From: Escherichia phage vB_EcoM-Pr121LW
Sequence record: MH752840.1
Length of the DNA stretch: 64,000 bases
Strand: one strand, 5' to 3'
Position 1 is the first letter of the stretch. Each line of letters opens with the position of its first letter. Both the position numbers and the translations under genes were made by a program. A model generated the notes under the pieces. The model was not told the origin of the DNA, did not search any database, and saw only the letters and a program-made list of their open reading frames with translations. Shown here in pieces: positions 24,408-44,972 of the stretch.

Positions 24408-24667
24408 GCAAGGTTGTTGTGAGGGCCAGTGAGTGGGCAGCCAAGAACAGTTCACTCAACTGGTTCGACTTTCTTTGGTGCAGGGTGCTCAAGAATTTCA
24501 AAGGGGAAAATTTTGAATCGCTAAATCTTGCAGATATGGCGTATTTCCTGAAGCTCTGTGAGTATCTTGATATTGAAGAATTCCTAGATACCGTCCAAAA
24601 CAGGGAAATGGAGCGGGAGCAGAAGGCTGCCGCAGCTGCTGCGAAAGCTAAGCGCAGGAGAGGATAA
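23934..24667 (+). CDS. tail assembly chaperone, predicted -1 frameshift fusion product
   Basis: Slippery heptamer T-TTT-TTC at 24302-24308 in frame; the -1 frame is open from 24308 to the stop at 24667. Confidence 0.5.
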
Positions 24668-27061: not shown

Positions 27062-27066
27062 TAAAC

Positions 27067-27097
27067 TGCGGGGGGCTCCGGCCCCCTTTATTTTTAT
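27067..27097 (+). terminator. rho-independent terminator
   Basis: Hairpin GGGGGC-TCCG-GCCCCC followed by a T-run. Confidence 0.7.
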
Positions 27098-27102
27098 CGG
27101 TG

Positions 27103-27131
27103 TTGTAAAAACAGCTATTTTATGATACAAT
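27103..27131 (+). promoter_or_regulatory. sigma70-like promoter (TTGTAA-N17-TACAAT)
   Basis: Promoter-like hexamers upstream of the baseplate block. Confidence 0.35.
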
Positions 27132-27165
27132 ATCTAAATGGTATCGGAGTGTCCTGGAGAGGTTA

Positions 27166-28049
27166 TGCCAAATAATATAGTTGATGAAAAAGATCTGTAC
27201 AAGCCTCAAGAGGTTAAGTCTCCAAAGGCTGAAAAGGCTGAGCAGCAAACTGAAGGTGATGTAAAGTACACTATGTTTGTCAGCGGTCTTAACTATGGTG
27301 GTCGCAATACGGAGATGAAGGGTAAAAACTTTACTAACGATCTTGCTATTATCTTCGACCAGGTTGAGAACTATTCTTTCAAACATTCTGTTGATAAAAC
27401 TGGTTTTGCAGTGGAAGATAAATCTACCATGTCAGACCACGCTGTAATTAAAGATGGTGTATTTTCTTTTACTGGTAGGGTAAATACATCCCCACATATA
27501 ATTTATGAGCAAAACTACATTGATAGGAATACTGACTCTAAAAACCCTGCAGCATCTATGAGACCAGGCGCTGCATTGGAGGCTTTGACTGAGATTATCA
27601 ATAAGCGACAGTTGGTTTCCTTGGTTACCGAGGAGAGACTCCTTGAGAACTATATCATAACCAGCCTTTCTGCCAACAAGTCTGTTGGTGAAGGCGCTGC
27701 AATGGTGTTTGATGTGGAACTTACAGAGTTCCGCACATTCTACTTGAATAAGGTTGTTAATGCAACAGTGTACAGCAATCCTAAAAAAGTTGGGAAGACC
27801 CAGCAAAAAGGTGCTGTCAACGATTGCAAGAATGGTAGTAATGTAGGTAACAAGAGAGATACAGGGGCATTTGCAGACACTGCATCCACAAATGCTGCAG
27901 AAGAGTGGCAGCCATACAAGTCTATGATGTGGACAGATGAAAACGGTGTTACCCAGTCCGCTGCCGATTGGTACTATCAGGAATATGGAAGACCTTCCAC
28001 TATAGTTCCGTCAGAGCAGGGAAACTACGACAAAGTTAACGGAAAATAA
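27166..28049 (+). CDS. tail or baseplate protein
   Basis: First gene after the tape measure; start at ATG 27166 behind GGAGAGG. Confidence 0.4.
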
Positions 28050-28060
28050 GGGGAACAGTA

Positions 28061-28441
28061 ATGGAGCTTAAAGATTGGTGTGTAATCACTTTTGTGTGGG
28101 ACATTGATGGCTTTCCTGATCAAACCATGCGTGTTGTTTTAGATAACGAAACGTATGAAATGCGTATGCAGTGGAATGAAAGAGATGAGTCCTGGTGGCT
28201 ATCCCTTGGTCCGGTAGGGGATAGTCCTCTAGTAACCAGAAAGGTAACAGCTTGCCAAGATATTTTAGACGGTCTGCATTACAGAGACGATTTACCGAAA
28301 GGTAGATTGATGGCTTTGTCGTTTAAAGACGATCAATATTGGGGCAGGGTTGGAAGGTACAACCTTGGTGCGAGATCTGAGTTACAACTTGTGTACGGCA
28401 CCCCAGTTGATCTTTACAAGGAACAGCAAGGGTTAGACTAA
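28061..28441 (+). CDS. tail or baseplate protein
   Basis: 126-aa ORF in the baseplate operon. Confidence 0.4.
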   Translation: MELKDWCVITFVWDIDGFPDQTMRVVLDNETYEMRMQWNERDESWWLSLGPVGDSPLVTRKVTACQDILDGLHYRDDLPKGRLMALSFKDDQYWGRVGRYNLGARSELQLVYGTPVDLYKEQQGLD

Positions 28442-29445
28442 TGGCAGAGTACAGACGTAGAACATGGCGATTATTGTTTGGTCGTCCTGTAGAGCACGGT
28501 GGAAAATCAAAAACCAATATTCCGAAATCTGTTGAAAAGAAAGGTGAGAGTGATTCTGGAGTCTATGAGATTAGCTCAGACACAGGCGCTGCCAACATAG
28601 AGTTCGACATACAAAAGGATAATACAAAAGAGCCAAACAAAGGTTATGTGACAGTTTACAACCTGTCTGACGATACAGTTAACTATTTGGATATGCATCA
28701 GGCTGATGCCCTTGCAGTTATGTTTGAAGCTGGCTATGATAATGAGAACCAGTTGATATTCTCCGGAACTGTGGAGTTTGTTGAAGACAGATGGGAAGGT
28801 CCGACCAGAAAAACTAAGTTCATCTTTGGGGATGGCACTGAGAACATCATTAAGTGCCAAAGCACAAGATCGTATCAGAAAGGCACACCTCTGAACTCTG
28901 TGCTTAATGACCTACTGAAGGATATGAACTTGCCAAAGGGTAGGGTTGTTGGTTTTGGAAACCAGACTTTGCAATACTCTATGGCTTTCTCTGGAAACAC
29001 TGCAGAGAACCTCCGCAGGTTTGCAAGGCTGACCAACTCAACATTCAGCGTTCAGGATGGGGCTTTGTATTGGACCAAGGTTGGAAAAAGGTTCAAGGAC
29101 TCTGTGTTTGAAATAAGTGCAGAGTCTGGGATGCACGGATCTCCTACCCCTAAAAACCCAGAACCTGCTAAAAAACGAAAAGCTAAAGCTGCTGCCAAAG
29201 GTGGTTCGACATCTAAAAAGAAAAAGAAAAACCCGAGAGAGGATGTTGGCCTTACTGTAACCACATGCCTTAACGGGGCCATTCTTCCAGAATCCACCAT
29301 TTACCTTAAAAGCAGGCAATACACAGGTTTCTATAAGGTGATCACGGTGCATCATAAAGGTACCATAGAAGGTGGTGATTACACTACAGAGCTCGGCCTT
29401 GGGGAAACAGTGGGTGGAGTTGTTGACAAAACTGAGGAGGTATAA
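28441..29445 (+). CDS. baseplate hub-like protein
   Basis: 334 aa; position equivalent to P2 gpD or Mu gpP just upstream of the gpV-like spike; Lys-rich internal linker. Confidence 0.4.
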   Translation: MAEYRRRTWRLLFGRPVEHGGKSKTNIPKSVEKKGESDSGVYEISSDTGAANIEFDIQKDNTKEPNKGYVTVYNLSDDTVNYLDMHQADALAVMFEAGYDNENQLIFSGTVEFVEDRWEGPTRKTKFIFGDGTENIIKCQSTRSYQKGTPLNSVLNDLLKDMNLPKGRVVGFGNQTLQYSMAFSGNTAENLRRFARLTNSTFSVQDGALYWTKVGKRFKDSVFEISAESGMHGSPTPKNPEPAKKRKAKAAAKGGSTSKKKKKNPREDVGLTVTTCLNGAILPESTIYLKSRQYTGFYKVITVHHKGTIEGGDYTTELGLGETVGGVVDKTEEV

Positions 29446-30122
29446 TGGCAATAAACAGGAAAGATGCTGCTGTAAGATCCTTTATAGAAAAAATAATGAG
29501 GGACTACCACACCAGCATCAGGGCCAGAGTTGTCAGCGTAGATTACAGTATCCCCTCTGCAGCCGTGCAGCCAATAGCTGAAACCACGTTTGATGACGGA
29601 GATGTGGAGAGATACCCGCTTATCTATGACGTTCCAATTCAGGTGATGTCTGCAAACAGTGGGAAGGCAAGGTTAACACTTCCTATTAAGGCTGGAGATG
29701 TTGTAGGGCTGCAGTTTTCAGAGAGAAATGAAAACAATAACGATGATCAACAAACTCACGGCCTGTTTCCTGGGTGGGCAATCACCTCTGTTCATTCAGA
29801 CTCAAACGCTTTACAGATCGATCCTGATAACGTAGAGTTATGGAATGATAGGGTTTATTTTAAACTGACACCTTCTGGCGATTTTGAGCTTCAAACACCG
29901 GGTGGAACATTACGGTGCGACAGTAGCGGGGAGTTTTCTTTCACTAACGGTGCTGCCAATTTGCGAGCTGCTGTGGATGGAAATATCAGAATGAATGGTG
30001 CCACAATAGACCCATCTGGTAGAATTATAACTGCTGCTGGTGTGGATTTGGATTCATTCTATGCAGAATATAAAGGTCATACCCACTCTTGCCCTGATGG
30101 CGAGACAAGTGGACCGCACTAA
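29445..30122 (+). CDS. baseplate assembly protein V-like (spike)
   Basis: 225 aa; N-terminal OB-fold-like segment RARVVSVDYS ... KAGDVVGLQFSE resembling gpV-family spike proteins. Confidence 0.5.
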   Translation: MAINRKDAAVRSFIEKIMRDYHTSIRARVVSVDYSIPSAAVQPIAETTFDDGDVERYPLIYDVPIQVMSANSGKARLTLPIKAGDVVGLQFSERNENNNDDQQTHGLFPGWAITSVHSDSNALQIDPDNVELWNDRVYFKLTPSGDFELQTPGGTLRCDSSGEFSFTNGAANLRAAVDGNIRMNGATIDPSGRIITAAGVDLDSFYAEYKGHTHSCPDGETSGPH

Positions 30123-30134
30123 TAGAGGGCTTTC

Positions 30135-30851
30135 ATGGCTACGCTTTATAGTGATATATTAATGGACCCACAGACAGGCGATTTGGCGATAGACAAAGGT
30201 CTTGAGTTGATAGATTCAAACCAGGTAAGTCTGCGCCAGCGCTTGTGGATGAGGTTTAATACGTGGAAGGGGAGCTGGTACTTTGACGAGTTGTTTGGCT
30301 TCCCTTATATGGACTTTCTCAGTAAGAAGGTCATGAAGACTGTTCTTGATAACAAGATTATGGAAGTGGCAAGACAAGAGCCGGATGTGCTAAACATCAT
30401 AAACTTCCAGTCTACCATGGATCGAAGATCGAGAACATACCAAGCGTTCTTTGAGGTTGTTACCAAAGAGAACGAGATTGTAAGGCTGGCTTTCGTAGGT
30501 CTTGATCAGTTTACCTACCCACAGCCTGATTCTGGGACAACCTCTCTCTGTGATGATGAAGGTTGGATTAAGTGGGCTAATAAACTGTACTATCTGATCA
30601 ACTTCAGATTGCCCAGAACCGGAGATGCCACATGGTGGAACCAGTATGCTGGTCCTGAGATGGAAAACCCGATCCCTGTAGGCTCTCTGTTGACTCAGGA
30701 TAAAGATCTGCTGATGACTGAGGCAGAACAAACCATTAACCGCAATACCTGGACGCTTGCTCCAGATGAGCGCGAATACTCTGGTGTTATTGCTACCTCC
30801 AATGATGAGGCTATTGCCAACCAGTCTGGTCGTGCTATTGATGTTAACTAA
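30135..30851 (+). CDS. baseplate wedge protein
   Basis: 238-aa ORF following the gpV-like gene; assigned by position. Confidence 0.4.
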   Translation: MATLYSDILMDPQTGDLAIDKGLELIDSNQVSLRQRLWMRFNTWKGSWYFDELFGFPYMDFLSKKVMKTVLDNKIMEVARQEPDVLNIINFQSTMDRRSRTYQAFFEVVTKENEIVRLAFVGLDQFTYPQPDSGTTSLCDDEGWIKWANKLYYLINFRLPRTGDATWWNQYAGPEMENPIPVGSLLTQDKDLLMTEAEQTINRNTWTLAPDEREYSGVIATSNDEAIANQSGRAIDVN

Positions 30852-30860
30852 GGAGAAACC

Positions 30861-31529
30861 ATGGCTGTAGCTTATCCTACAATACCAATTCCAGATCTTG
30901 AAGATGCAGAAACAGTCCTGAGTGATGACTTCTTGGTTGTCAACCAGACTGATGGGACAAGAAAGGCTAAGATTGACGATGTTGTCAACGATCTTAGCAT
31001 CACTAAGATAGTCTATTTCACAGAGGGTGGTTATCTTAAGAGTAAGAAGGACTTTGCTTATGATCCAGAAACTAAGCGCTACTACACGTGGAACGGGGAT
31101 TATCCTAAAATAATCCTCCCAGACTCCACTGTAGAGGGTGCTGGAGGTGTGTCTGCAAATGCCTGGTCTGTTTTTGGTGAGCTTGCTGCAACTTCTTCTG
31201 GCAGAATAGTTGATTACGGATCTATCGGCGGTCAGCTTGATATGGATCTTGAAGTTGCGGATACTTTTAAGGTTCGACTAACTTCAAATACCACAATCTC
31301 TTTTGAAAATCAAACAGAAGGTCTTGAAGGGGTGGCGAGAACTATAACCGTATGCATTACTCAGACCTCTGGCGGCAACAAAGTCTATTGGCCTGGTAAT
31401 GTTAAATGGTCCTACGGAAGAGATCCTATCCTAACATTTACAGCTGGTGCAACAGATATTTTCAAGTTGGAAACCTACGACAACGGGTTAACTTGGTACG
31501 GGGCACTGATTATCGCAGGAGCTATCTAA
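30861..31529 (+). CDS. fibre or spike protein with shared N-terminal anchor domain
   Basis: N-terminus (DDFLVVNQTDGTRKAKIDDVV ... EGGYL ... DFAYDPE) is paralogous to the N-terminus of the 1268-aa fibre at 34164. Confidence 0.45.
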   Translation: MAVAYPTIPIPDLEDAETVLSDDFLVVNQTDGTRKAKIDDVVNDLSITKIVYFTEGGYLKSKKDFAYDPETKRYYTWNGDYPKIILPDSTVEGAGGVSANAWSVFGELAATSSGRIVDYGSIGGQLDMDLEVADTFKVRLTSNTTISFENQTEGLEGVARTITVCITQTSGGNKVYWPGNVKWSYGRDPILTFTAGATDIFKLETYDNGLTWYGALIIAGAI

Positions 31530-31530
31530 G

Positions 31531-34128
31531 ATGCGTATTCAACATAACATTGATAACGTATTTCAGATGATTGAGGGGCACAGGAAGTGCCTCGATAACA
31601 ACACAGGTATTACCAACACCCCTACACAAAATAAGCTAGTAAACCCTGATGGTCTTATAGCTGCAGGGTGGGCAGGTAATAAGATAAATAATGATTGGGC
31701 GATGCATGAGCCCCAAGCTGTGTTGATTCTGGGATACATTGAAGCATACAGGGCATCGAAAAGCGATTTCTATCTGGATAGGGCAAAAGATGCTTGGGAA
31801 GCTTACAATAGCCATCTTCTAGGTGCATATGCAGTAGAAAGTAAAATGCAAAGATTGTCCCACTACCCTCTATCTACAGATGGGGTTCCATCACATGGTG
31901 GGTTTAAAGATGTGGTGGTGTCTTTTACCAATGGTAGAGGAAAAATCCCAGCTGGATCTCCGACATGGGGGGAATACCTGGACAAGGCATTCCAAGCGTA
32001 TAACGGCGTGTTAGGAAGAAACACTGTAGACTCTGATGTTTACGGTGGCACAGATGATAACCCAGATTGGACAACATCCGGATTAAGTTGGTGGGTTGAG
32101 TGGTATATAGCATGGGATGGTAATCGCTATTGGGCTAACGGTAGCATAGCTGATAGTGGTCATACGTCTGTAGAGTTTGGCACAATCCAATTACAAGACA
32201 AGGGTGTTACAGGCAACCACAAAGTGACCTATTGTGTAAGATTACCTCAAGAGCAGGGTGGATCGGTGATCCCTGCTGGATCCCCTGTAATTGTGAATCC
32301 TATAAACGTGGTTGCAGACAATCAAGCCCCAGAGTTGGATGGGGAAGAAATGTGGTGTGACGCTTGTTATCAACTCTACACCTTGACAGGTGAGGAAAAG
32401 TATTACACCGCGTTTAAACAGTCTTACAACAAGTTGCTTAATTTCAGTGATATAAACGCTTACGACAAACTGTTTAGAAAGACCACGTTGATTAAGGCAC
32501 CATTTACAGATGGTACTTGTCTTGTTGCAGGAACAGTTCCTGTCACGAGCAGAGACAGTGACGGGTATATCAATTTTAGAATGAACGCACGCCAGCCTTG
32601 CGAAATAATTCAAAAAGGTACCACCTACAAAATAGGCAGAGATGCTGAAATTGTCATGAATTTCGGAGGAGAGGGGGTTCTGTTCCAGCCACATTTCATC
32701 CTTAATGATGGCAACAATAACAAAAAACAGTACAGGATAGGTGTCCCTTTTGGAGGTGCAGAGGTAACAGAAATAGTTGCCAAGGTTACTGATTTCGTAG
32801 AGGTAGTTGGTAAAGACGGTAATCCGTACCTCTTACCTAAAGAGGAAAACATTGCCGTGAGCGGTGGTGCCAGTGTTAGTATGCAGTACGATACTGACAT
32901 TTACAACCACTCTGACAACTTCACCCGTTGTAATATAGCAAGAGGCAAAGTAACTTTCAATTTTGGAAGAGAGATTTCTTTAAACTCAGTAACTTATCGA
33001 TCAGATGATGAGATGGTAAGGGTCAAATTTCTTGACAAAGATAGGTGGTTATGGTATGCTGATCTATATGCCACTAATGGACAATGGATAACAGAAACTC
33101 TTACTCTAGGAGATTTCAAACTAGATCCGACACAACCTCATCACACTGAAGAAGAGATTAAACCTTTCTTTGCTAATCCTAAGGGACTCACCTCTGTAGA
33201 TTTCAGCCTAAGCGACAGACAGATAGGTAATGGCTTGTTTGATCTATATTGCGTCAACACACTGCCGCAATTCTATATTGCAGATAGGGATGCTTATCTA
33301 ATCTGGTTTAGCGTATGGATGGCAAGCAAGACAGAATCAACCGCTAAGGTTGGTGATTGCTATGTCAGAAACTACAAGCAAGGTGCATACAGGCACACTC
33401 CTGGTGTGTTCCCTGCCGGAAAGGTGATAGATAAGGAAAATTACCTCTTGGAGGAAAAGCCAAATTGGCCATATCCAGGTATGCAATACCCCGCAGTCTA
33501 CTGTATGGGTGCAGAAAACATAGATCGCTATAGGTTGTCAAATACAATAGGCTTTCTGTATGACGCTCAAGTCTGGTATAATAACACATTTAAGACAGAG
33601 GGTCCAGTCGCCTCACGTTATGTATGGCAGAGAGGTAATGAAGGATTAACTGGTTGGTGGGAGATGGTAGATAACTCTAAGCTCCAGTCAAGATCTTTTG
33701 TTGCTGCGTGCCGCACAATCTATGAGCTCAAGAAACATAAAGAACCTGTTGATGAAAGATTATTCCTGTTCTGCCAGAAATGGGCATGGTTCCTCAACAG
33801 ATTCCAGTCATCTCATTCAGGAAATCTACCTACAGACTTTAACACCTCTGGGGGATATTCTTATCAAGACAGAGGAGACAGGATGTGGGTGGTAGGTGAA
33901 TGGCTTGCAGGCTGCTGCTGGCTAGGTCTGTGCGGGTATTCAGAGACAATACCACAAATAGATATTGTTGTAGAAGCCTGTGTGAAGCTACTGCAAAAGC
34001 ACCACTTCATTAATGGTGATAATGTTTTAAACGGCTGCTGGGCAGTTTCTGATCCGGTGGGCTATCACTCTGGCGAAATCCTTCGCGGTCTGGGACTTTA
34101 TGCTCAATACCGTGGATTGTACCTTTAA
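31531..34128 (+). CDS. large virion protein (probable receptor-binding or depolymerase-type)
   Basis: 865-aa ORF within the fibre block; no catalytic motif recognised. Confidence 0.4.
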   Translation: MRIQHNIDNVFQMIEGHRKCLDNNTGITNTPTQNKLVNPDGLIAAGWAGNKINNDWAMHEPQAVLILGYIEAYRASKSDFYLDRAKDAWEAYNSHLLGAYAVESKMQRLSHYPLSTDGVPSHGGFKDVVVSFTNGRGKIPAGSPTWGEYLDKAFQAYNGVLGRNTVDSDVYGGTDDNPDWTTSGLSWWVEWYIAWDGNRYWANGSIADSGHTSVEFGTIQLQDKGVTGNHKVTYCVRLPQEQGGSVIPAGSPVIVNPINVVADNQAPELDGEEMWCDACYQLYTLTGEEKYYTAFKQSYNKLLNFSDINAYDKLFRKTTLIKAPFTDGTCLVAGTVPVTSRDSDGYINFRMNARQPCEIIQKGTTYKIGRDAEIVMNFGGEGVLFQPHFILNDGNNNKKQYRIGVPFGGAEVTEIVAKVTDFVEVVGKDGNPYLLPKEENIAVSGGASVSMQYDTDIYNHSDNFTRCNIARGKVTFNFGREISLNSVTYRSDDEMVRVKFLDKDRWLWYADLYATNGQWITETLTLGDFKLDPTQPHHTEEEIKPFFANPKGLTSVDFSLSDRQIGNGLFDLYCVNTLPQFYIADRDAYLIWFSVWMASKTESTAKVGDCYVRNYKQGAYRHTPGVFPAGKVIDKENYLLEEKPNWPYPGMQYPAVYCMGAENIDRYRLSNTIGFLYDAQVWYNNTFKTEGPVASRYVWQRGNEGLTGWWEMVDNSKLQSRSFVAACRTIYELKKHKEPVDERLFLFCQKWAWFLNRFQSSHSGNLPTDFNTSGGYSYQDRGDRMWVVGEWLAGCCWLGLCGYSETIPQIDIVVEACVKLLQKHHFINGDNVLNGCWAVSDPVGYHSGEILRGLGLYAQYRGLYL

Positions 34129-34163
34129 CATAGGGGGCTGTTTGCCCCCTTTCAGGAGAAAGA

Positions 34164-37100
34164 ATGGCTGATATTAAAGTTGTCAGAATTGAATCTCTTC
34201 CTGCCACTACCGCAGTGACAGAGGATGATTACCTGGTTGTTCAACAACCAGACCTGACCCGTCGTGTAAAAATTGGCGATGTTGTCCATGTGGATGGGAC
34301 TGTTTCTCATGTAATCTCCTTTAAGGAAGGTGGTAAGTTAAACGGCCCAATGGATTTTGCCTACTTCGAAGAGGAAGACCTCTACCTGCGTTGGAAAGGC
34401 GAATTTCCACACACCGTTCCTGCATTGTCTTCACCGTACTCAGATGGTGGGATTACTGACGCTGCATGGATGGTATATACTGATCCGTCCTTAAGGGAGG
34501 AGCTGGAATCTACCATTGGCGCATCCATGATTATGACAGCTGAAGGTCAGTCTGTCCAGGATGTAATGGATGTTACAGTTAAGACCGCCAACGATGCTAA
34601 AGCACTTGCACAGCGGGTAGATTTTGGTACCGTGCACACTGTAGGCGATGTTATTCACCTTGTCAATTTTGTTGGCCCTGCAGTTATTGAAGAGGGAAGA
34701 ACTACTAACTACCCTTCTGTAGCAGCTGGTGAAAAATTCCTGAACGGTGTGGTATCTCGTCGTGATACTACAACTGTTGATGGTATTTTCCGTGGCGCTA
34801 CCTCCGGAGCTATGTATACCATTGCAGTAACCAACGGTGTAGCAACAACAAAAAGAATAGCACTTCGTGATGAATTTAAACGCCTAGAGGCAAACAACCC
34901 AACAAGAACCATTATTCGTGCTGGCGATGATGTAAACACAGCCGGGTACTTGCAGCTTGATGCAACAGGTCGTTGGGGCATGTGGAACCAACAGACATCT
35001 TCATGGCAACCTCTTGCTGTAGAGCAAGGTGGTACAGGTGCCAGAGATGCCGCAGGTGCACGTATTAATTTAGGAACTTTTTATAAACAACGTGCAGCCC
35101 TTGAGGCAAATTTCAATATCAATAATTTGACGGGTAATCAGGATGGTGTATACTACCAGCCGATGACTGCTAATGCAACTGAGGAAAATGGCTACCCTGC
35201 AGGTTCTGGTGCTGGTCACTTAATTGTTTGGCAGAACAATGCTAACGGCGGTGCAGGTTGTCGTCAGGAATACTATCCATTCTCTAACGTAGATGTTTGG
35301 TATTTGAGAACCTATCAGGCCAACACAAATCAGTGGACTGCATGGCAGCCTATGGTCAGACCTCGTAACGATGACACCTTCAGATCTCATATCGGCCTTG
35401 GTAAAAACAACTCACCAGCATTCGGGCACCTTTACTTAGCTCAATACTCTGGAGATGTTAAATCGGCCTCAGGTATTGTACACGGTGACAAGTATAATCG
35501 AGAAGGTACTCTTGAGCATGGATATCGTATCTACTCTGAAGTAAGAAACGATAATAAAGCTTGGTTAACAATACACCTCCATAAGGGAGCTACTGGTGCA
35601 GAAACACATAGATACCTCGGATTCAGAGAGGATGGTGTTTTAGATTGTCCTAAATATATGCAGGTTGGCGATCTAAATGGTCAGCTGGCAAACTGGGGAC
35701 TGGCAGAGTGGATCCGTAGTTCAGGCGCTGAAAGAGGTTTCTGGGGTTCCAAGAAAGCAGCCAAAATGGTTATCTGGGACGGAGGCATGGATGAGTCTGG
35801 TAACGGCACTCTGGAATGGGGTGTTTATAACAACCGGAAGGCCAAGTGGGAACCTTTACCTCAAGCCGCAGGTGGTACTGGAGCTACAACTCTGGCAGAA
35901 GCTCAAAACCTGTTTAGAATACCTATGGCAGCAGGTGTAAAAGATTTCTTAACACTGCCAAGAACAGCAGCCATGGTGGATGGTAAATATTACCCTGTTA
36001 TTGTAAGAACAGATCCGTACTATGCACCAGCTGTTGGTACAGATATTACAATAGTTACAAGATCCTCTTCTGGCAACGATCCTATGAACTGCGCAACACT
36101 CCAGTGTCATTACAGAACTGGTGGTTGGACAGACCGTGGAGACTCTTTTACTGGTGTTATAAACTTCTACCAGAACGAAAGAGCAATACTTGGTTGTGTT
36201 GCTCCTACTCGCGGAAAACAAGAGTATGTTGCTTTTTATGTAGAGGCCAGAGCTTTCCCAGTAAGCGTATATACAAGCCGAAACGTGCTTGAGGTATTTA
36301 CCAGGGAAAATGACTGGCAGGTAGGGAATGTAACTGACAATCAGGACGGTGTTAAGTTTTGTGCTCCGTTAGAGTCAGCAGACTTAAATCTTGCGATAAA
36401 GGGTGATAATGTAACTAACACCAGATCTCTTGCGGAGTTTAAAGGAACATCAGGTTTTTACACAGGCGGTGGTACTCAGTGGCACTACATCGGCACACCT
36501 GAACGCTATGCGGTCATGAGTAAAATGACCATGCCTAAAGTTGAGCTGTGGGCAGATGGTATCGACTACCTATGCCCTGGTAGCCAGACCACAAGGAAAG
36601 CACTGTTCTCTAATGCTGGATTCCAGGCAGCATCTGAAGGTACAGAGGACTTAATTAACAACACATTTACTTCCAAATGCGGCAAGGGTGCAGGTCTGAA
36701 AGGCCAGTCAGAGTTCAGGTCTACCCCAGAGGCTGGACAGGTAATTGTCAGAGATGTTGTTGGTTCTGCACATAAATTCTTTAACTTCAACAAAGACGGC
36801 ACATTCTACCCTCCTGGAGGTTATGTTTGCCAGACAGGTGCGGATTGGAACAATCAGTTTGGTAACACGAACCCGTCAAAAATAATGGCTGGTAATGTTA
36901 ACGGACCTGAAGGTTCCATGGTTGTAGCAGGGTTGTCGGTCGGTTTTTCTGGAAATTATGCATTCCAGATGGCTGGTCGTCTTGATCAGTTATACACTAG
37001 GTCTATTGAGGGTGGCAATCACAGAGCGTGGAACAAGGTAATCCAACACCGTGGTCAGGGCCTAGGGACAAACGATCTTAATGACTACAAGGGCGATAGA

Positions 37101-37970
37101 GAGGGTTTTTATCATCAAGAGGCCAACTCTCAAGCCACACCTGAGAGAAACTACCCATGCGGACAGGCAGGTACTCTCCTTATCTATAGAAACTATGCTA
37201 ACGTTCCAGAGAGTTGCGTACAGGAATATACAACATATCTTGGAGAAAAATTCCTGCGTTATGGAACAACGATAGGTGGTGTTTTCACATGGGGCCATTG
37301 GCAGCAGCTTGGTGGTAAGGGTATCACTTTAAAAACTCAAGGGTCCAATCTTGAACCTGAGTTCACAATACACACAGGTGGCGGTACTGATGTTACCAAC
37401 ACTTCAAACATGCCTTCTAATACAGGCAGGTTGTACTATTGGGGTAATGGCGCGGATAGGAAGAATGTGCTGGAGTTCCAGATAAGTGATGACTCAACAG
37501 CCGCCAGCTGGGTATTCCACTGTGGAGCTAAGACAGATGAGGCTAAATCAAGATATTTTGCTGTCAACGGCACGGTAGAATGTACCACTGTTAGCCAAAG
37601 TTCCGATAGAGACCTGAAGGATAATATAGAGGTCATACCTAACGCTCTGGAAGCAATTAGAAAGATGAAAGGCTATACCTACACCTTGAAAGAGAATGGT
37701 ATGCCTTATGCAGGCGTGATTGCTCAAGAGGTTATGGAAGCATTGCCAGAGGCAGTAGGATCTTTCGTGAAAAGGAAGGAAATAGAAGGTCCTACTCAAG
37801 ACGGTACTCCTCTGATGACCGAGGAAAGGTTCTATAACGTTGACTACGCAGCCGTAACAGGCTTGCTTGTCCAGGTTTGCAGGGAGCAGGATGATAAAAT
37901 AACTGCCCTTGAGGAGCAGGTTAAAAAATTAACGGAGGTTGTTACTGGGTTGCAAGAGAAACTGAAGTAA
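34164..37970 (+). CDS. long tail fibre with C-terminal intramolecular chaperone (peptidase S74-like)
   Basis: 1268 aa; C-terminal SDRDLKDNIEVIPNALEAIRKMKGYTY motif with Ser/Lys dyad, then a coiled coil. Confidence 0.6.
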   Translation: MADIKVVRIESLPATTAVTEDDYLVVQQPDLTRRVKIGDVVHVDGTVSHVISFKEGGKLNGPMDFAYFEEEDLYLRWKGEFPHTVPALSSPYSDGGITDAAWMVYTDPSLREELESTIGASMIMTAEGQSVQDVMDVTVKTANDAKALAQRVDFGTVHTVGDVIHLVNFVGPAVIEEGRTTNYPSVAAGEKFLNGVVSRRDTTTVDGIFRGATSGAMYTIAVTNGVATTKRIALRDEFKRLEANNPTRTIIRAGDDVNTAGYLQLDATGRWGMWNQQTSSWQPLAVEQGGTGARDAAGARINLGTFYKQRAALEANFNINNLTGNQDGVYYQPMTANATEENGYPAGSGAGHLIVWQNNANGGAGCRQEYYPFSNVDVWYLRTYQANTNQWTAWQPMVRPRNDDTFRSHIGLGKNNSPAFGHLYLAQYSGDVKSASGIVHGDKYNREGTLEHGYRIYSEVRNDNKAWLTIHLHKGATGAETHRYLGFREDGVLDCPKYMQVGDLNGQLANWGLAEWIRSSGAERGFWGSKKAAKMVIWDGGMDESGNGTLEWGVYNNRKAKWEPLPQAAGGTGATTLAEAQNLFRIPMAAGVKDFLTLPRTAAMVDGKYYPVIVRTDPYYAPAVGTDITIVTRSSSGNDPMNCATLQCHYRTGGWTDRGDSFTGVINFYQNERAILGCVAPTRGKQEYVAFYVEARAFPVSVYTSRNVLEVFTRENDWQVGNVTDNQDGVKFCAPLESADLNLAIKGDNVTNTRSLAEFKGTSGFYTGGGTQWHYIGTPERYAVMSKMTMPKVELWADGIDYLCPGSQTTRKALFSNAGFQAASEGTEDLINNTFTSKCGKGAGLKGQSEFRSTPEAGQVIVRDVVGSAHKFFNFNKDGTFYPPGGYVCQTGADWNNQFGNTNPSKIMAGNVNGPEGSMVVAGLSVGFSGNYAFQMAGRLDQLYTRSIEGGNHRAWNKVIQHRGQGLGTNDLNDYKGDREGFYHQEANSQATPERNYPCGQAGTLLIYRNYANVPESCVQEYTTYLGEKFLRYGTTIGGVFTWGHWQQLGGKGITLKTQGSNLEPEFTIHTGGGTDVTNTSNMPSNTGRLYYWGNGADRKNVLEFQISDDSTAASWVFHCGAKTDEAKSRYFAVNGTVECTTVSQSSDRDLKDNIEVIPNALEAIRKMKGYTYTLKENGMPYAGVIAQEVMEALPEAVGSFVKRKEIEGPTQDGTPLMTEERFYNVDYAAVTGLLVQVCREQDDKITALEEQVKKLTEVVTGLQEKLK

Positions 37971-37977
37971 CTGTTTT

Positions 37978-38003
37978 GCCCTCGCTTCGGCGGGGGCTTT
38001 TTT
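37978..38003 (+). terminator. rho-independent terminator
   Basis: Hairpin GCCCTCGC-TTCG-GCGGGGGC followed by TTTTTT. Confidence 0.7.
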
Positions 38004-38010
38004 GTTTGTA

Positions 38011-38039
38011 TTGCGTATTAACTCAAAATCTGGTAAAAT
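38011..38039 (+). promoter_or_regulatory. sigma70-like promoter (TTGCGT-N17-TAAAAT)
   Basis: TGGTAAAAT extended -10 pattern upstream of the J-like module. Confidence 0.4.
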
Positions 38040-38070
38040 AACTATCATGATTGTTTAACCTGGAGGCACA

Positions 38071-38661
38071 ATGTTTTTATGGGAAAGGCCTAGATACCTT
38101 CCAGATATTAGATTGGAGCTGCTGGCAGATATTGTTACGTTTAAAAGTCCGTTTACAGGTAAAACGCAAAAAGTAACCTATGCCACACCTAACTGGAAAG
38201 GCACTTTGACGGTTTCCAATATCAGCGAGTCACAGTTGCTAGAGCTTAAGAGCTTTGTTGATCAGGTGTATAAAGATGGGAACATATTTCTCATTAAAAC
38301 TTACGGTCACTCAGTAACAGCTAATGAGCCAATCGCCCTTGGGCCTACTGGTAACGACGATTTTTTGAAGACGGTTGGGTGGGAGCCAAACAGAGACATA
38401 GCTAGAGCTGGGGATAAAATATCTGTCAATGATGAATTGAAAGTGGTAACAGCTCCAGTACGCAGCGATGGTGTTGGGTCTGCTGTTATAAGCATATCTC
38501 CAAGACTTAGAAAACCTATTGCCGCAGGGGATACTATGAAGATAATAACTCAATCCCCAAAGGGTAGGTTTCATATCAGAGATATTTATAAAATTAAGCA
38601 AAAAGTCGATGCTATGCAAAAAGGTGATAATATAGTTATCAACTTCTTTGAGGATTTCTAA
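38071..38661 (+). CDS. minor tail protein (possibly lambda M-like)
   Basis: 196 aa; first gene of a four-gene block ending in the J-like gene. Confidence 0.35.
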   Translation: MFLWERPRYLPDIRLELLADIVTFKSPFTGKTQKVTYATPNWKGTLTVSNISESQLLELKSFVDQVYKDGNIFLIKTYGHSVTANEPIALGPTGNDDFLKTVGWEPNRDIARAGDKISVNDELKVVTAPVRSDGVGSAVISISPRLRKPIAAGDTMKIITQSPKGRFHIRDIYKIKQKVDAMQKGDNIVINFFEDF

Positions 38662-38662
38662 G

Positions 38663-39214
38663 ATGATTAGAGCGCCATTAGATAATTTATTTCTTGAGAA
38701 GCTGGAGCTTGATGGTGTTGAGATCTTAATTGCTGCAAAGCTAGAGCTACCGACAGGGACTGTCAGGGTGTGCTCAGGCACTGGTGTTGTAGTAATTGAG
38801 GGTCAACATTTTATAGGGATAGGTGGATCAGCAACATTAACTGCTGTGTCTGAGAAAGATGCCACCAACTTCGGATCTGTGGTAGCAACATTGAACGGGT
38901 TTGATCCTAAGTATGTTGGTGATCTACTGAAGACGGAGTATTCTGGTTGTCGTGCCACGTTGTACATTACCGCTATGGAGAATGGTCTGCCTGTTACAAC
39001 TAATGGTTTGTTTGACGGCCTTATAACAGATATGGCTATTCAGACAGGTGAGAACAGTGCTTTGTCCATATCCATCTCTTCCATCTTCAACAGTTGGTTA
39101 AGAGGTTTTCCTTATCGGTACACGGAGGAAAGCCACAGCTCAAGAAACGATAATGACAGATTTTTTAAATATGTGGATCAGGTGGCGAGCCGCCCGATCA
39201 TTTGGGAGGTTTAA
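38663..39214 (+). CDS. minor tail protein (possibly lambda L-like)
   Basis: Start at ATG 38663 behind GAGGA; second gene of the J-like block. Confidence 0.35.
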   Translation: MIRAPLDNLFLEKLELDGVEILIAAKLELPTGTVRVCSGTGVVVIEGQHFIGIGGSATLTAVSEKDATNFGSVVATLNGFDPKYVGDLLKTEYSGCRATLYITAMENGLPVTTNGLFDGLITDMAIQTGENSALSISISSIFNSWLRGFPYRYTEESHSSRNDNDRFFKYVDQVASRPIIWEV

Positions 39215-39639
39215 TGAGCACACATCCTCGTTTAGTAGATTGGCAAGAAAGATTGTGGAAAGTGTTTGACGAAGAGGCCACCATACCTTTTGAATGGGGA
39301 TTCCACGATTGTTGCACCTTTGCAGCCAAGTGTGTTGATGCCCAGTACGGAACAGATTTTCTTTCTAACTTCGAAGGAACGTATAAAACAGAGTTGGAAA
39401 GCAAAAGATGGTGCATGCTCCGTTTCAAAACCACACACCTGCCTACTATTTTTGATCTCTTTATGACTCGGCTGGATACTCATAAACAGGTTCAGCGTGG
39501 AGATATTGTCATTTTCGAAGGTCTGAACGGGCTCACCGCTGGTGTGTTCTGGAACAACCAGATTTGGGCGAAAGGTGATAAAGGGGTCTTTATGTTCGAC
39601 ATGAAAGATTCTATCGTTGTTGATGTCTGGAGGTATTAA
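39214..39639 (+). CDS. tail-tip protein (possibly lambda K-like)
   Basis: Start at ATG 39214 behind GGGAGG; Cys/His segment FEWGFHDCCTF; position just upstream of the J-like gene. Confidence 0.35.
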   Translation: MSTHPRLVDWQERLWKVFDEEATIPFEWGFHDCCTFAAKCVDAQYGTDFLSNFEGTYKTELESKRWCMLRFKTTHLPTIFDLFMTRLDTHKQVQRGDIVIFEGLNGLTAGVFWNNQIWAKGDKGVFMFDMKDSIVVDVWRY

Positions 39640-42600
39640 TGCCAATTGCAATGATTGATAACATCGTTGCTTCTGCAAGATCTTCAAGTTATGACTGGAA
39701 CGCATCCAAGGCAGCTCTGGCTGACAGCCTGAACACTGTTACCACCAGAACTCTGGATAAGATTTTTGAGGGCAACAAATCTTACAGAAGTCAGCAAGAT
39801 AGACAAAAGCTTCTCAGATCTTCTGCTGCACCCTGCTCTGTAGTGTATGGGAAGACACGCACGTCTGGGCTGCTTGCGTTTTTGGAGCAGGACAGAGACA
39901 GAACCCTCCATTGTGCCATTGTTCTTGCTAATCATCCTCTGGAAGGTATAGAAGACATACTCATCGACGGTAATCCTATTTCCTCGTATGGAGATCTGGT
40001 ATCGTGGGAGCTACATAACGACAGAAAAACATCTGATCCTTTCATGGGTACACACTGCCCATCGTGGTCACCAGATATGATAGGCAGAGGTATCAGTTGG
40101 CTGCGTGCCAGCTTCAAGTTTGACCCCAGTAAGTTTCCTTTTGGGTTGCCAAACGTTACACTGGTCAAGGTTGGTAAAAAATGCTATGACCCCCGCATCA
40201 GTAAAGAGGTGTATACCAATAACGCGGCCTTGGTGATCCTGGACTATTTAAGAACGTACCTTAAATGTCCTGACGAAACCATCAACTGGGAGTCCTTTAG
40301 GGAGGCTGCCAATATATGCGACGAGGCGGTAAAAAACGCTGACGGAACCAGTGAGCGACGTTACACCATTAACGGTGAGTTTGACATGGATGAGGCCCCA
40401 GCAAGTATTATGGCAGAAATGCTGAAAGCTTGCGGTGCAGACCTTAGTTATGTTGCTGGTAAGTATGGTTTGCTGGTTGGTGCATACTATGGCCCAGCAA
40501 CAATGACACTGAGTGAGGATTGTGTCTGTGGTGAGGTCAAGATCTATCCGGAAGCCTCCTTTGACAAGAGATCCAACACAATAACTGGCAGATTCACTAG
40601 TCCGACCAAAGGGTATTCTGAAACAGATTTTCCATCAGTGTTTGTCCCAGAGTGGATAGAGAAGGATGGAGAAAGAAAGATAATTGATATAGACTATCGC
40701 TTTGTTACCAGTCCTTATCAAGCTCAGCGTGTTTCTGCAATCTTCTTAAGACGTGCTAGAGCTGGCAGGATTATTGAAGTCACCTGCAATATGCGAGGTT
40801 TTAAATTTAAACCTGGCCGTTACGTTACAATGGACCTTCCAAGTATTGGTATAGTAGGCCAAGAAATGAGGGTTCTTGAATGGGAGTTCACCAAAAAGGG
40901 CGGTGTCAAGGTAAAACTTCGTCAAGATGCTAAAGAGTGGAATGATGCCACAGGGCAACTTCCGGATTCTGGTGATGTAGATATTCCGATATCTCCATCT
41001 GGTGTAGCTCAACCGCAAAACTTCAGATATTCCGTTCTCCAAGCCGGGGAAGTAACTCACGGTGTTTTGGCTTGGGACAACGTTGGAACTTACGCTCAAA
41101 ATATTGTGCAGGTAAGAAAGAACGGAGAGATTGTTTGGACAGCACAGACAGTTGAGCAGTTTGTCCGAGTAGAAGGCTTGACCAAAGGATCATACACAGC
41201 AACCGTGGTTGCAACATCTTATAAAGGTGGTGTATCTCCAGAAGCGTACTGCGAGTTCAACATTCAGGCACCTGAAGCTCCTGTTTCTGTGGAGGTTAAG
41301 CAGGGATACTTTGCTATTACCCTGATCCCGCACAGCAGAGACTTGGCTAGTGTAAGCACCCAGTACGACTTTTGGACATCTGGGATGACAAGATTGCCAG
41401 ATACCAGTGATGTAACAGTTACTTCAAAAGCCACTCGTATGGGTGTTGGTTCAACTTGGACATCTGAAGGTCTGCAGAACGATAAGATTTATTACTGGTA
41501 TATCAGGACAACAAATGCTTTTGGTTCATCTGCTTTTGTGGAGTGTGCAGCCCACTGTTACACATCCATAGAAGATCTTATGCCACAGATTGATGCTGAG
41601 TTCAAAAAGACAGAGACTTATAAAGAGCTTACCGCCAATCTTGATAATGCAGTCAAGGAAATGGATAAAAATGTTGGTGCAGTCAATGACCGTGTTACTA
41701 GCATTTTTGAAGAGCTTGGGGATACAATAGAGGGTGTTGTCAGAGAGACGACAGAAAAATTTACAGGGGTTAATGGAGAAATTTCTGCCCTTAACAGTAA
41801 GCTGGTAGCAGCTCAGCAATCCTTTGACGATAAACTTGCAGCAGAGTCTGGTAGGCTTGGGTCACTAATCGAGACAACAAATAGATCAACCGTTGATCTT
41901 GTTAATCGTAAAACTCAAGCATTGAGTGAGCAAATAACTGCAACTCAAGGTGCTCTGCGGGAAGAGTTGAAGAACACTGAGAGCAAACTTAACTCCTCTA
42001 TTCAAGAAACCAACAAGGCAACAACCGATCTGCTAAATAAGACAACGGAAGCTATTAAGCAGGATCTGGTGGCAGCTACAGGGAAGATCACCAAGCTGGA
42101 AGATGATGTGCAGAAAGAGGTTGCCAATCTGCAAGCATCTATTCAAGAAACTAATAGTACAACAGTTGATCTTGTTAATAATACAGCCACAGCGATCCGT
42201 CAAGAACTTACCTCTGCAAAACAAGAAATTGTTGACGAAATGGGTAATATTGATGAGCTCAGGGCTACAGTATCTAATACCTCTAAAGCTGTAACAACAC
42301 TTGAGGGTAAAATAGATGCTCAGTGGGGAGCTAAGATTCAGGTTGACAGCCATGGTAATAAATATGTGGCAGGTATCCAGCTGGGCATGGAGGGGTCTGG
42401 AGGACAAGTTCAATCATACTTCATGGTTAGTGCAAACAACTTTGCGGTATACAACCCCGGAAATGGAACAGCAACCCTTGCTTTCGCAATCAAGAACAAC
42501 CAAGCGTTCTTGAAAGACGCTTTTATAGAGAATGGCACGATCTCCTCTGCCAAGATCGCACAAGAAATTTCGTCAAACAACTACGATGGCAACGGGTACC

Positions 42601-43058
42601 ATAAATACGGTTGGTATATTAACAAGAACGGGCATGCCCAATTTATGGATGTGTGGGTGAAAGGCAACATCAACGCCAGTTCTGGTAACTTCACAGGGGC
42701 AGTTAATGCCACCAGTGGTACCTTCCGTGGAGATGTTTATGCCAATAATGGTAGCTTTAGAGGCACCATAGATGCAACCGGAGGTACATTCCGTGGTCGT
42801 GTAGAAGCTTCTGTTATCCGTGCTAACCAGTTCGAAGGTGCAATTGTTGCACACAGGACTTACGGAGATTGTGCTCCAGTGCATAACTCCCAGCAGAGGG
42901 TTTGCCGTTGGAGGTGGAGATACGTAGATAACGTTTCAGGTCAAGGTAAGAACGTAACATTCTTCTTTAAACTGAACGGTACTCGTGCCAACTCCCAACT
43001 AAATGCGTGGATAGCTGGTCATCAACTCCTTGCTGGCAAGAAGTACGGGAACGGATAA
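39639..43058 (+). CDS. lambda J-like central tail fibre protein, truncated by a tandem duplication
   Basis: 1139 aa; segments (YYWYIRTTNAFGSSAFVE; QWGAKIQVDSHGNKYVAGIQLGMEG ... NNFAVYNPGNG) match lambda J as I recall it; stop falls at the junction of the 127-bp repeat. Confidence 0.7.
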   Translation: MPIAMIDNIVASARSSSYDWNASKAALADSLNTVTTRTLDKIFEGNKSYRSQQDRQKLLRSSAAPCSVVYGKTRTSGLLAFLEQDRDRTLHCAIVLANHPLEGIEDILIDGNPISSYGDLVSWELHNDRKTSDPFMGTHCPSWSPDMIGRGISWLRASFKFDPSKFPFGLPNVTLVKVGKKCYDPRISKEVYTNNAALVILDYLRTYLKCPDETINWESFREAANICDEAVKNADGTSERRYTINGEFDMDEAPASIMAEMLKACGADLSYVAGKYGLLVGAYYGPATMTLSEDCVCGEVKIYPEASFDKRSNTITGRFTSPTKGYSETDFPSVFVPEWIEKDGERKIIDIDYRFVTSPYQAQRVSAIFLRRARAGRIIEVTCNMRGFKFKPGRYVTMDLPSIGIVGQEMRVLEWEFTKKGGVKVKLRQDAKEWNDATGQLPDSGDVDIPISPSGVAQPQNFRYSVLQAGEVTHGVLAWDNVGTYAQNIVQVRKNGEIVWTAQTVEQFVRVEGLTKGSYTATVVATSYKGGVSPEAYCEFNIQAPEAPVSVEVKQGYFAITLIPHSRDLASVSTQYDFWTSGMTRLPDTSDVTVTSKATRMGVGSTWTSEGLQNDKIYYWYIRTTNAFGSSAFVECAAHCYTSIEDLMPQIDAEFKKTETYKELTANLDNAVKEMDKNVGAVNDRVTSIFEELGDTIEGVVRETTEKFTGVNGEISALNSKLVAAQQSFDDKLAAESGRLGSLIETTNRSTVDLVNRKTQALSEQITATQGALREELKNTESKLNSSIQETNKATTDLLNKTTEAIKQDLVAATGKITKLEDDVQKEVANLQASIQETNSTTVDLVNNTATAIRQELTSAKQEIVDEMGNIDELRATVSNTSKAVTTLEGKIDAQWGAKIQVDSHGNKYVAGIQLGMEGSGGQVQSYFMVSANNFAVYNPGNGTATLAFAIKNNQAFLKDAFIENGTISSAKIAQEISSNNYDGNGYHKYGWYINKNGHAQFMDVWVKGNINASSGNFTGAVNATSGTFRGDVYANNGSFRGTIDATGGTFRGRVEASVIRANQFEGAIVAHRTYGDCAPVHNSQQRVCRWRWRYVDNVSGQGKNVTFFFKLNGTRANSQLNAWIAGHQLLAGKKYGNG

Positions 43059-43180
43059 CGTTTCAGGTCAAGGTAAGAACGTAACATTCTTCTTTAAACT
43101 GAACGGTACTCGTGCCAACTCCCAACTAAATGCGTGGATAGCTGGTCATCAACTCCTTGCTGGCAAGAAGTACGGGAACG
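42927..43180 (+). repeat. perfect tandem direct duplication, 2 x 127 bp
   Basis: 42927-43053 and 43054-43180 are identical base for base; 127 is not a multiple of 3. Confidence 0.9.
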
Positions 43181-43365
43181 CCAACGATGGCATGTGTGCA
43201 ATTGGGATAACAGGTCTAGGTGAACAAACTATAGACATTATTATTGAAATCTACACCCCGTGGTCAACGTCAAACGTGACAGGTGTCACAATCTCCTGTC
43301 CCACTGTGATCGTTAGTCGTTCTAACTCAAGCTTCCAGGGACCTTGGAACGAGTCTCACGACTAA
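43054..43365 (+). pseudogene. displaced C-terminal coding segment of the J-like gene (+1 frame)
   Basis: Frame +1 re-encodes DNVSGQGKNVTFFF...KKYGN from repeat copy 2 and continues ANDGMCAIGITG... to a stop at 43365; no independent RBS or ATG. Confidence 0.5.
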
Positions 43366-43370
43366 CCTTT

Positions 43371-43398
43371 AAAGCCCCGCTTCGGCGGGGTTTATTTT
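43371..43398 (+). terminator. rho-independent terminator
   Basis: Hairpin GCCCCGC-TTCG-GCGGGGT followed by a T-run. Confidence 0.7.
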
Positions 43399-43408
43399 TA
43401 TGCTCAGA

Positions 43409-43437
43409 TTGACTATTGTTACAAAATTTGGTAAAAT
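43409..43437 (+). promoter_or_regulatory. sigma70-like promoter (TTGACT-N17-TAAAAT)
   Basis: TGGTAAAAT extended -10 upstream of the baseplate J-like gene. Confidence 0.45.
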
Positions 43438-43470
43438 ACCTTGTAGAGATTTTCATACCGGAGGAGTGAC

Positions 43471-44961: not shown

Positions 44962-44972
44962 GGCGGTGAGAT

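Follow-up and report, generated by a model that had tools for sequence, protein, structure and literature searches.

Siphoviruses of the Queuovirinae encode their tail tips in four colinear genes (gp16–gp19 in phage Seurat, gp17–gp20 in JenK1), an arrangement shared with related prophages. Located after the tape measure gene, the module nucleates a non-contractile tube. A set of four genes with matching order and sizes occurs in Escherichia phage vB_EcoM-Pr121LW, a myovirus related to rV5. The sequence analyzed here is a 64,000-nucleotide stretch of record MH752840.1, referred to as the window, and the four genes occupy positions 38071–43365 of its plus strand, where they have neither a tape measure nor a tube partner and form an operon of their own. 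Judged by gene content and order, this block is an entire siphovirus tail-tip module now separated from its tape measure. Comparisons across phages strongly indicate that a common ancestor of the genus Vequintavirus acquired the module from a Queuovirinae-like siphovirus, and that it entered, together with a copy of this phage's cassette of terminator and late promoter, at a variable site that separates accessory fibre genes from wedge genes.

The window closely resembles the structural region of known rV5-like phages. More than 100 phage records match bases 27000–47000 at 90–99% nucleotide identity, and 110 records cover at least 80% of this 20-kb query. The best matches, Shigella phage CM1 and Escherichia phage HeinrichReichert (Bas58), each show about 95% identity over 100% of the 20 kb, and the gene order is that of Vequintavirus relatives. 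High nucleotide identity and synteny thus identify the window, with little doubt, as Vequintavirus sequence and this region as its structural locus. The rV5 genes gp40–gp37 and the corresponding loci of CM1, HeinrichReichert and Murica contain the same genes in the same order, with the same promoter (P040) and terminators, at 94–96% nucleotide identity. Records of rV5-like phages annotate gp37 as a host-specificity tail fibre or as central tail fiber J.

The first gene of the block (38071–38661) encodes a 196-residue distal tail protein (Dit) of the T5 pb9 type, which corresponds to rV5 gp40 and matches phrog_1302 ('distal tail protein', 2e-50). It is followed by a 183-residue hub subunit of the gpL, T5 pb3 N-terminal and gene transfer agent (GTA) g13 type (38663–39214; rV5 gp39; phrog_2048, 'tail protein') and by a 141-residue DUF6950 protein in the position of gpK and GTA g14 (39214–39639; rV5 gp38; DUF6950, 2e-32, and an unnamed PHROG). 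The last gene, identified by its homology to J, is a J-type tail-tip or fibre gene (39639–43365; rV5 gp37) that is assembled in the record as two overlapping pieces, 39639–43058 (1139 residues) and 43030–43365 (111 residues). The longest open reading frames (ORFs) of the hub subunit and the DUF6950 protein begin at TTG codons (38648 and 39202, respectively) and overlap the preceding gene; the annotations of rV5 and HeinrichReichert use ATG starts (38663 and 39214), which give the 183- and 141-residue proteins and start-stop coupling.

The relationship of this block to siphovirus tip modules is evident gene by gene. A tblastn search with the first 500 J residues returned about 116 Vequintavirus records at ≥95% identity and then, with nothing in between, siphoviruses at ≤56% (Seurat, SLUR76, Aeromonas phage SD04, JenK1, and phages of Pseudomonas, Serratia and Vibrio). 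In Seurat, the genes 3' of the tape measure encode a distal tail protein (194 residues), a tail protein (194 residues), a hypothetical protein (138 residues) and a central tail fibre J (1040 residues). The window's Dit, hub subunit, DUF6950 protein and J share 31–32%, 39–40%, 45% and 54% identity with these proteins, J aligning to Seurat J over residues 48–1044. The same four genes follow the tape measure gene in eight further siphovirus loci. Relatives were also retrieved from IMG/VR with an alignment of the J N-terminus; among the best 80, all but one (79/80) have the complete set of four in the same order, and their contigs measure ≤61 kb and lack relatives of this phage's sheath, tube or wedge. 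An ORF of tape-measure size (at least 600 residues; median 1085 residues) ends within 1.5 kb upstream in 72 of the 74 evaluable IMG/VR loci.

The window departs from this pattern in what precedes the block. The four genes do not sit immediately behind a tape measure gene among non-contractile tail genes; they are preceded by a Peptidase_S74 fibre gene and a terminator, and the sole tape measure gene (24722) belongs to the contractile tail. No second tape measure or siphovirus tube gene was found among the window ORFs or in the annotation of relatives. The gene-by-gene synteny, together with the usual tape measure neighbor in the relatives, is therefore the basis for regarding the block as a relocated siphovirus module. 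The window J has a longer helical segment than Queuovirinae J proteins. In siphoviruses, receptor-binding proteins are often encoded just downstream of J.

Profile searches with the small proteins gave weak matches, and predicted structures were therefore relied on for Dit and the hub subunit. The Dit structure, predicted from a 52-sequence alignment (predicted local distance difference test, pLDDT, 82), matches DT57C and T5 pb9 over its full length (E = 1e-8, template modeling (TM) scores 0.67 and 0.64), and pb9 is its best structural match; the corresponding sequence profile reached only E = 0.11 against DT57C Dit. For the predicted hub subunit (pLDDT 75), the matches are the N-terminal hub domain of T5 pb3, tip chains of T1, JBD30 and Sf11, the GTA hub, and lambda gpL (E = 2.2e-4, TM 0.49); its sequence profile weakly matches T5 pb3 residues 48–178 (E = 0.008). 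Single-sequence searches of the three small proteins against the PDB returned no match, nor did Pfam searches (E up to 10) with Dit and the hub subunit, or a small-profile search with the DUF6950 protein. A homologue search with the Dit sequence alone found only seven near-identical proteins, and alignment-based searches found more. In the alignment, the hub subunit has only two cysteines and no cysteine cluster, making a gpL-like Fe-S site unlikely.

Proteins of the DUF6950 family share an invariant Asp-Cys pair and an R-G-D motif. The family alignment contains no conserved histidine, the residue that is catalytic in NlpC/P60 peptidases, and signals to known families are weak (NlpC/P60, E = 0.088 for the Seurat homologue; lambda K, 4.9 bits). 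The DUF6950 protein may consequently be inactive or act by a different mechanism.

The protein starting at 39639 is clearly related to J, with matches to Pfam Phage_Tail_Tip (1.4e-38), Ig_J_second (3.2e-30) and Ig_J, to PHROG 31 ('central tail fiber J', 6e-165), and directly to lambda J (1.8e-27). It comprises hub domains (about residues 137–496), an Ig/FN3 region (497–665), a helical segment (about 660–880), a Phage_Tail_Tip region (875–1036) and a C-terminal domain. Its N-terminal profile matches T5 pb3 residues 430–766 (4e-17), T1 J (1e-12) and lambda J residues 266–485 (2.6e-7). Since the small hub subunit and the J N-terminus match separate regions of pb3 (residues 48–178 and 430–766, respectively), the two proteins together reconstitute a pb3-like hub. 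T5 makes its hub as one polypeptide and its fibre, pb4, as a separate protein; in the window, a small subunit and J share the hub between them, an arrangement also found in lambda.

Comparison with the lambda tip (PDB 8IYK) reveals a shared logic, in which Dit is followed by a hub subunit with a gpL-like fold, an assembly protein and J. The hub, Ig and tail-tip regions of the window J align to lambda J residues 266–485, 666–832 and 842–991, respectively, and the protein thus has the hub, Ig/FN3 and tail-tip fibre domains of lambda J. Lambda, however, has gpI, gpM and a JAB domain in gpK, whereas the window module has no gpI, a pb9-like Dit and no JAB domain. No gpM-type protein (about 109 residues, Phage_min_tail) was recognized, the first protein having no Pfam match and its profile giving no significant hit to lambda M. 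The hub subunit matches gpL at the level of fold but shows no sequence similarity to lambda L and no Phage_tail_L match. In the place of a gpK with JAB/MPN and NlpC/P60 domains, the third gene encodes a single DUF6950 domain, and the gpI position is empty. A preliminary description of this sequence had called the block a lambda-type tail-tip module ending in a J-related protein that matches lambda J along much of its length. The kinship with J is confirmed, and so is the shared logic, but the other genes belong to a different family; direct pairwise similarity to lambda J is confined to residues 497–665 and 875–1036, with profiles adding the hub region.

The block is bounded by transcription signals on both sides, all on the plus strand, the terminators being strong hairpins. 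The upstream operon of hub, spike and fibre genes ends in a terminator (37978–37997; rV5 t041) with eight pairs, seven of them G-C, followed by TTTTTTGTTT, and the late promoter of the block (38011–38040; rV5 P040) reads TTGCGT-17-TAAAAT with a TG and the TGGTAAAATA motif. At the far end, a terminator of nine pairs, six of them G-C (43372–43393), closes the block in a layout like that of the upstream cassette, and the late promoter of the wedge operon follows (43409–43438; rV5 P036; TTGACT-17-TAAAAT with a TG, 10/12 matches). The block is thus flanked by two similar cassettes, each consisting of an CGCTTCGGCGGGG hairpin terminator and then a CAAAAT(C/T)TGGTAAAATA promoter. Exact copies of TGGTAAAATA occur at four places in the window (20360, 23882, 38031 and 43429, plus strand), each 5' of structural genes, and copies with at most one mismatch are fourfold enriched (23 against 5.9 ± 2.5 expected). 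These sites correspond to published MEME-derived putative late promoters of rV5 (P040, P036 and P056), and in Table S4 of the rV5 genome paper (2013), P040 and P036 appear with these sequences as putative late promoters, and t041 as a terminator. From the flanking cassettes, the enrichment of the motif and the rV5 table, it follows that the four-gene block (38071–43365) is an independent late transcription unit, as already published for rV5. Generic sigma-70-like sites were not enriched over shuffles in the window (38 found vs 33 ± 6.6); the generic scan was dropped as evidence in favor of the phage-specific motif and the rV5 promoter table.

Synteny comparison with related phages, a check proposed in the preliminary description, aligns the module with that of Seurat and finds it missing from sister genera and from phi92. 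The sheath-initiator gene is directly followed by the wedge gene in Certrevirus POP15, and the virion protein table of Septuagintavirus W70 gives the same succession. Only fibre genes separate the two in Seunavirus SSE121, Mydovirus Ro1 and phi92, and at the equivalent fibre-to-wedge junction SSE121 has a single cassette of the kind described above. Among the genera compared, the four-gene block is found in Vequintavirus only, and it is an insertion in this genus. The fibre block upstream (30861–37970) is not a comparable insertion, because Seunavirus, Mydovirus and phi92 also have fibre genes at this site and the block is co-transcribed with the hub and spike genes; it is ancestral and common to several relatives. 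It begins 10 nt past the gene before it, and neither a promoter nor a terminator marks its 5' end. The earlier proposal of two inserted blocks, each with its own promoter-like site and terminator, therefore holds for the four-gene block, with P040 and its terminator, and fails for the fibre block.

The earlier placement of the block's end at 43058 also needs correction, as J runs to 43365 and its frame is broken by a perfect tandem duplication of 127 bp (42927–43180, in which 42927–43053 is 100% identical to 43054–43180). As assembled, J loses its last 60 residues, and the 111-residue ORF at 43030–43365 represents the displaced C-terminus. Deleting one copy of the repeat restores a J ORF of 3600 nt and 1199 residues. 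HeinrichReichert has a single copy of the 127 bp and an intact 1199-residue J ORF, and the duplication junction was found in no record of the phage collection. The split is specific to the window and is not seen in rV5, CM1, HeinrichReichert or Murica. The repeat length equals the largest default k-mer of the SPAdes assembler, and an untrimmed overlap between the ends of a circular contig at k = 127 would leave such a repeat; the duplication is quite probably an assembly artifact. The length of the C-terminus varies within the genus, J having 1279 residues in rV5 compared with 1199 in HeinrichReichert and in the window after removal of the duplication.

Substitution patterns relative to HeinrichReichert show that all four genes are under strong purifying selection. 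Synonymous and non-synonymous changes number 8 and 0 in Dit, 12 and 0 in the hub subunit, 9 and 3 in the DUF6950 protein, and 111 and 17 in J, giving ratios of non-synonymous to synonymous rates (dN/dS) of 0, 0, 0.08 and 0.04, respectively; essential baseplate genes (hub, spike and wedge) have ratios of 0.01–0.05. The product of at least one of the genes reaches the particle, if only in traces, as gp37 was found in the rV5 virion proteome by mass spectrometry, one of its peptides being GYSETDFPSVFVPEWIEK, which is present verbatim in the window J. A paper on O177 phages contained no proteomic data relevant to the block.

Dit and the hub subunit contact the tube and the tape measure in siphoviruses. 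In a siphovirus pair with equal J divergence (Seurat and Opt-155), Dit and the hub subunit retain 50% and 56% identity, respectively. The window's Dit and hub subunit have diverged from Seurat beyond the level of that pair, and the DUF6950 protein has not. Given the contacts made by Dit and the hub subunit in siphoviruses, their extra divergence fits a change of binding partners.

Taken overall, we consider it reasonably likely that the block is a captured siphovirus tip module whose products contribute to a peripheral receptor-binding fibre complex. The origin, composition, transcriptional autonomy and conservation of the module are taken as established, together with the presence of at least a trace of J in virions. 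In the proposed mechanism, the module would be expressed late, and its products, needing neither a tape measure nor a siphovirus tube, would self-assemble into a closed tip that combines a Dit ring with trimers of hub and J, with the DUF6950 protein serving as an assembly or accessory factor. The tip complex would ride on the periphery of the contractile baseplate as an extra long receptor-binding fibre, leaving the phage's own hub and iron-tipped spike in the central membrane-piercing position, and host binding would fall to the variable C-terminal domain of J. The long helical segment (about residues 660–880) and the length-variable C-terminus would suit a fibre role of J. The fully autonomous form of this model, in which Dit ring, hub trimer and J trimer dock peripherally as siphovirus-type tips, and in which Dit and the hub subunit have been refitted by evolution to bind baseplate or fibre proteins in place of a tail tube, is put forward tentatively, as a possibility that falls short of an even chance. 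Several observations weigh against a complete peripheral tip. Support for gp37 in the rV5 virion is thin (four peptides, 4.2% coverage), and gp38, gp39 and gp40 were not among the 19 proteins detected. Cryo-electron microscopy (cryo-EM) of two Vequintavirus phages placed three fibre types only, and the J-like fibre was not among them; it was mentioned only for its resemblance to central tail fibres. The evidence that Dit and the hub subunit have diverged faster comes from few pairwise comparisons. Assembly of the lambda tip, moreover, involves the tape measure.

A reasonable rival account would make J alone the virion component, a lateral fibre anchored by its hub-like N-terminus, with the other three proteins acting as chaperones or adaptors that are absent from the particle or present in traces. 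The detection of gp37 alone among the four rV5 products agrees with it, as does the label of lateral tail fibre given to J by the BASEL curators, and lambda gpK, the positional counterpart of the DUF6950 protein, is an assembly factor that remains outside the virion. Yet Dit-like and hub-like folds form structural rings in every solved siphovirus tip, the window's versions show no non-synonymous change relative to HeinrichReichert, and an rV5 analysis that detected only 19 proteins would miss small, low-copy ones; this account therefore seems rather doubtful. Far less probable is a strict lambda-type M/L/K/I/J tip with J as a true central fibre. The Ig, tail-tip and hub regions shared with lambda J and the gpL-like fold of the hub subunit speak for it, but the first protein is a 196-residue two-domain pb9-type Dit instead of a 109-residue gpM, the DUF6950 protein is single-domain with a weak signal to K, no gpI gene is present, the module's profiles have no sequence similarity to lambda M or L, and the center of the baseplate is held by homologues of the phi92 hub and spike. 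The pb9-type fold, the phi92 homologues and the lack of M or L similarity largely refute this possibility. A central position of J is in any case unlikely, because the phage has a complete hub of its own and a gpV-type spike that ends in an HxH tip; the two are homologues of phi92 gp137 and gp138, which hold the baseplate center in the phi92 cryo-EM structure. The mosaic adsorption apparatus envisaged in the preliminary description accordingly stands as a siphovirus tip module within a contractile baseplate cluster, in which J is unlikely to be a central fibre. It is also very improbable that the block is a decaying recombination relic whose broken J marks it as dispensable. The J ORF is interrupted in the window, and viable sister genera do without the module, but about 116 Vequintavirus records contain all four genes intact, with conservation of at least 95%, dN/dS lies between 0 and 0.08, and the interruption is unique to this assembly, its perfect 127-bp repeat being typical of an untrimmed assembler overlap. 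The reading of a captured tip module in a peripheral fibre complex remains preferred.

The phage's own baseplate is of the simple contractile type known from P2, Mu and phi92, and Pfam, PHROG and phi92 homology recover its full component set on the plus strand. The sheath (21911; DUF3383), tube (23298; KPP10_Orf10), chaperone (23934; Phage_TAC_15) and tape measure (24722; TMP_3) genes are followed by a terminator (27070–27087) with a seven-pair stem, six of the pairs G-C, and a T run, identical in sequence to rV5 t049. A promoter-like site at 27103–27131 (TTGTAA-17-TACAAT with a TG, 9/12 matches), which overlaps the putative rV5 late promoter P048, precedes the hub, spike and fibre operon. This operon opens with a tail tube initiator of the phi92 gp135 type (27138–28049; Pfam Dit_like, 2.6e-22), annotated in the same way in HeinrichReichert, and a baseplate plug of the Pam3 gp18 and phi92 gp136 type (28061–28441; Pfam Pam3_gp18, 2.9e-18). 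The baseplate hub of the gp27 and phi92 gp137 type (28441–29445; phrog_196, 'baseplate hub', 3e-83) and the central spike of the P2 gpV and phi92 gp138 type (29445–30122) follow, the latter with a Pfam spike N-terminal domain (1.4e-9) and an HTH motif (HxH) at its tip. Next come a sheath initiator of the gp25, gpW and phi92 gp139 type (30135–30851; phrog_4233, phrog_120) and three fibre genes (30861–37970) encoding a 222-residue adaptor (Tail_spike_N), an 865-residue tail protein and a 1268-residue fibre with Tail_spike_N and a Peptidase_S74 chaperone domain.

Beyond the four-gene block, a wedge pair (43471–45659) consists of a 496-residue Baseplate_J-type protein (from 43471; Baseplate_J, 3e-9; phrog_6), 32% identical to phi92 gp145, and a 228-residue gpI-like second wedge protein homologous to phi92 gp146 (44973–45659; phrog_4056). 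Identity to phi92 is 27% for the spike and gp138 (3e-25), including the HxH motif, 25% for the sheath initiator and gp139 (7e-17), and 29% for the second wedge protein and gp146, with E down to 8e-30 among the three. Cryo-EM of phi92 (2026; PMC13450770) places the hub and spike at the center of the baseplate and the wedge heterotrimers at its periphery. The tube initiator, plug, hub, spike, sheath initiator and two wedge proteins of phi92 are all homologous to those of the window, as are the fibre genes between sheath initiator and wedge, but phi92, unlike the window, has no Dit, hub subunit, DUF6950 and J block. These scans and the phi92 homology bear out the myovirus order of tail genes given in the preliminary description, with 21911 as sheath and 23298 as tube; the gene at 30135, there termed a wedge, is not strictly a wedge protein and is reassigned by its phrog_4233, phrog_120 and phi92 gp139 matches to the sheath initiator.

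A frameshifted chaperone, also proposed there, is plausible. A canonical -1 slippery heptamer, T_TTT_TTC, lies at 24302–24308, about 100 nt 5' of the Phage_TAC_15 chaperone stop, and the -1 frame is uninterrupted from there to 24667 (24305–24667), where an 82-residue ORF ends. The chaperone gene likely carries a G/GT-type programmed frameshift.

The genes themselves, their annotations (host-specificity fibre, central tail fiber J, distal tail protein), the promoter and the terminator are already public or given in the 2013 rV5 paper, and the window adds nothing beyond more than 100 public genomes. Among the open-access papers and preprints searched, none explicitly describes the block as a whole siphovirus tip module within a myovirus, and none places it in the virion. 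The rV5-like phages are among the most often isolated coliphages and are candidates for therapy and biocontrol, and the parts list of their adsorption apparatus, with its many fibres, is incomplete. A siphovirus tip kept by selection in a myovirus, with a J that recent cryo-EM left unplaced, raises the question of where such a tip sits when there is no non-contractile tube to cap. Its location would identify a further host-range determinant and show how modules cross between tail types. If autonomous peripheral tips are indeed formed, evolution would have turned an entire tail-tip machine into a side fibre.

Downstream of the wedge genes, a 690-residue protein (45659–47731) carries a Calx-beta domain along with two domains, N-terminal and TIM-barrel, of the N4 gp65-type 'non-contractile tail sheath protein' (1.7e-79). 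This homologue of phi92 gp142 represents a podovirus-type receptor-binding module, the second cross-morphotype module at this locus. Finally, 18 records labeled 'Campylobacter phage' (MG0656xx; for example, A147 and A135; about 140 kb) are 97–99% identical to the window sequence, which suggests that they are mislabeled or contaminating E. coli phages.

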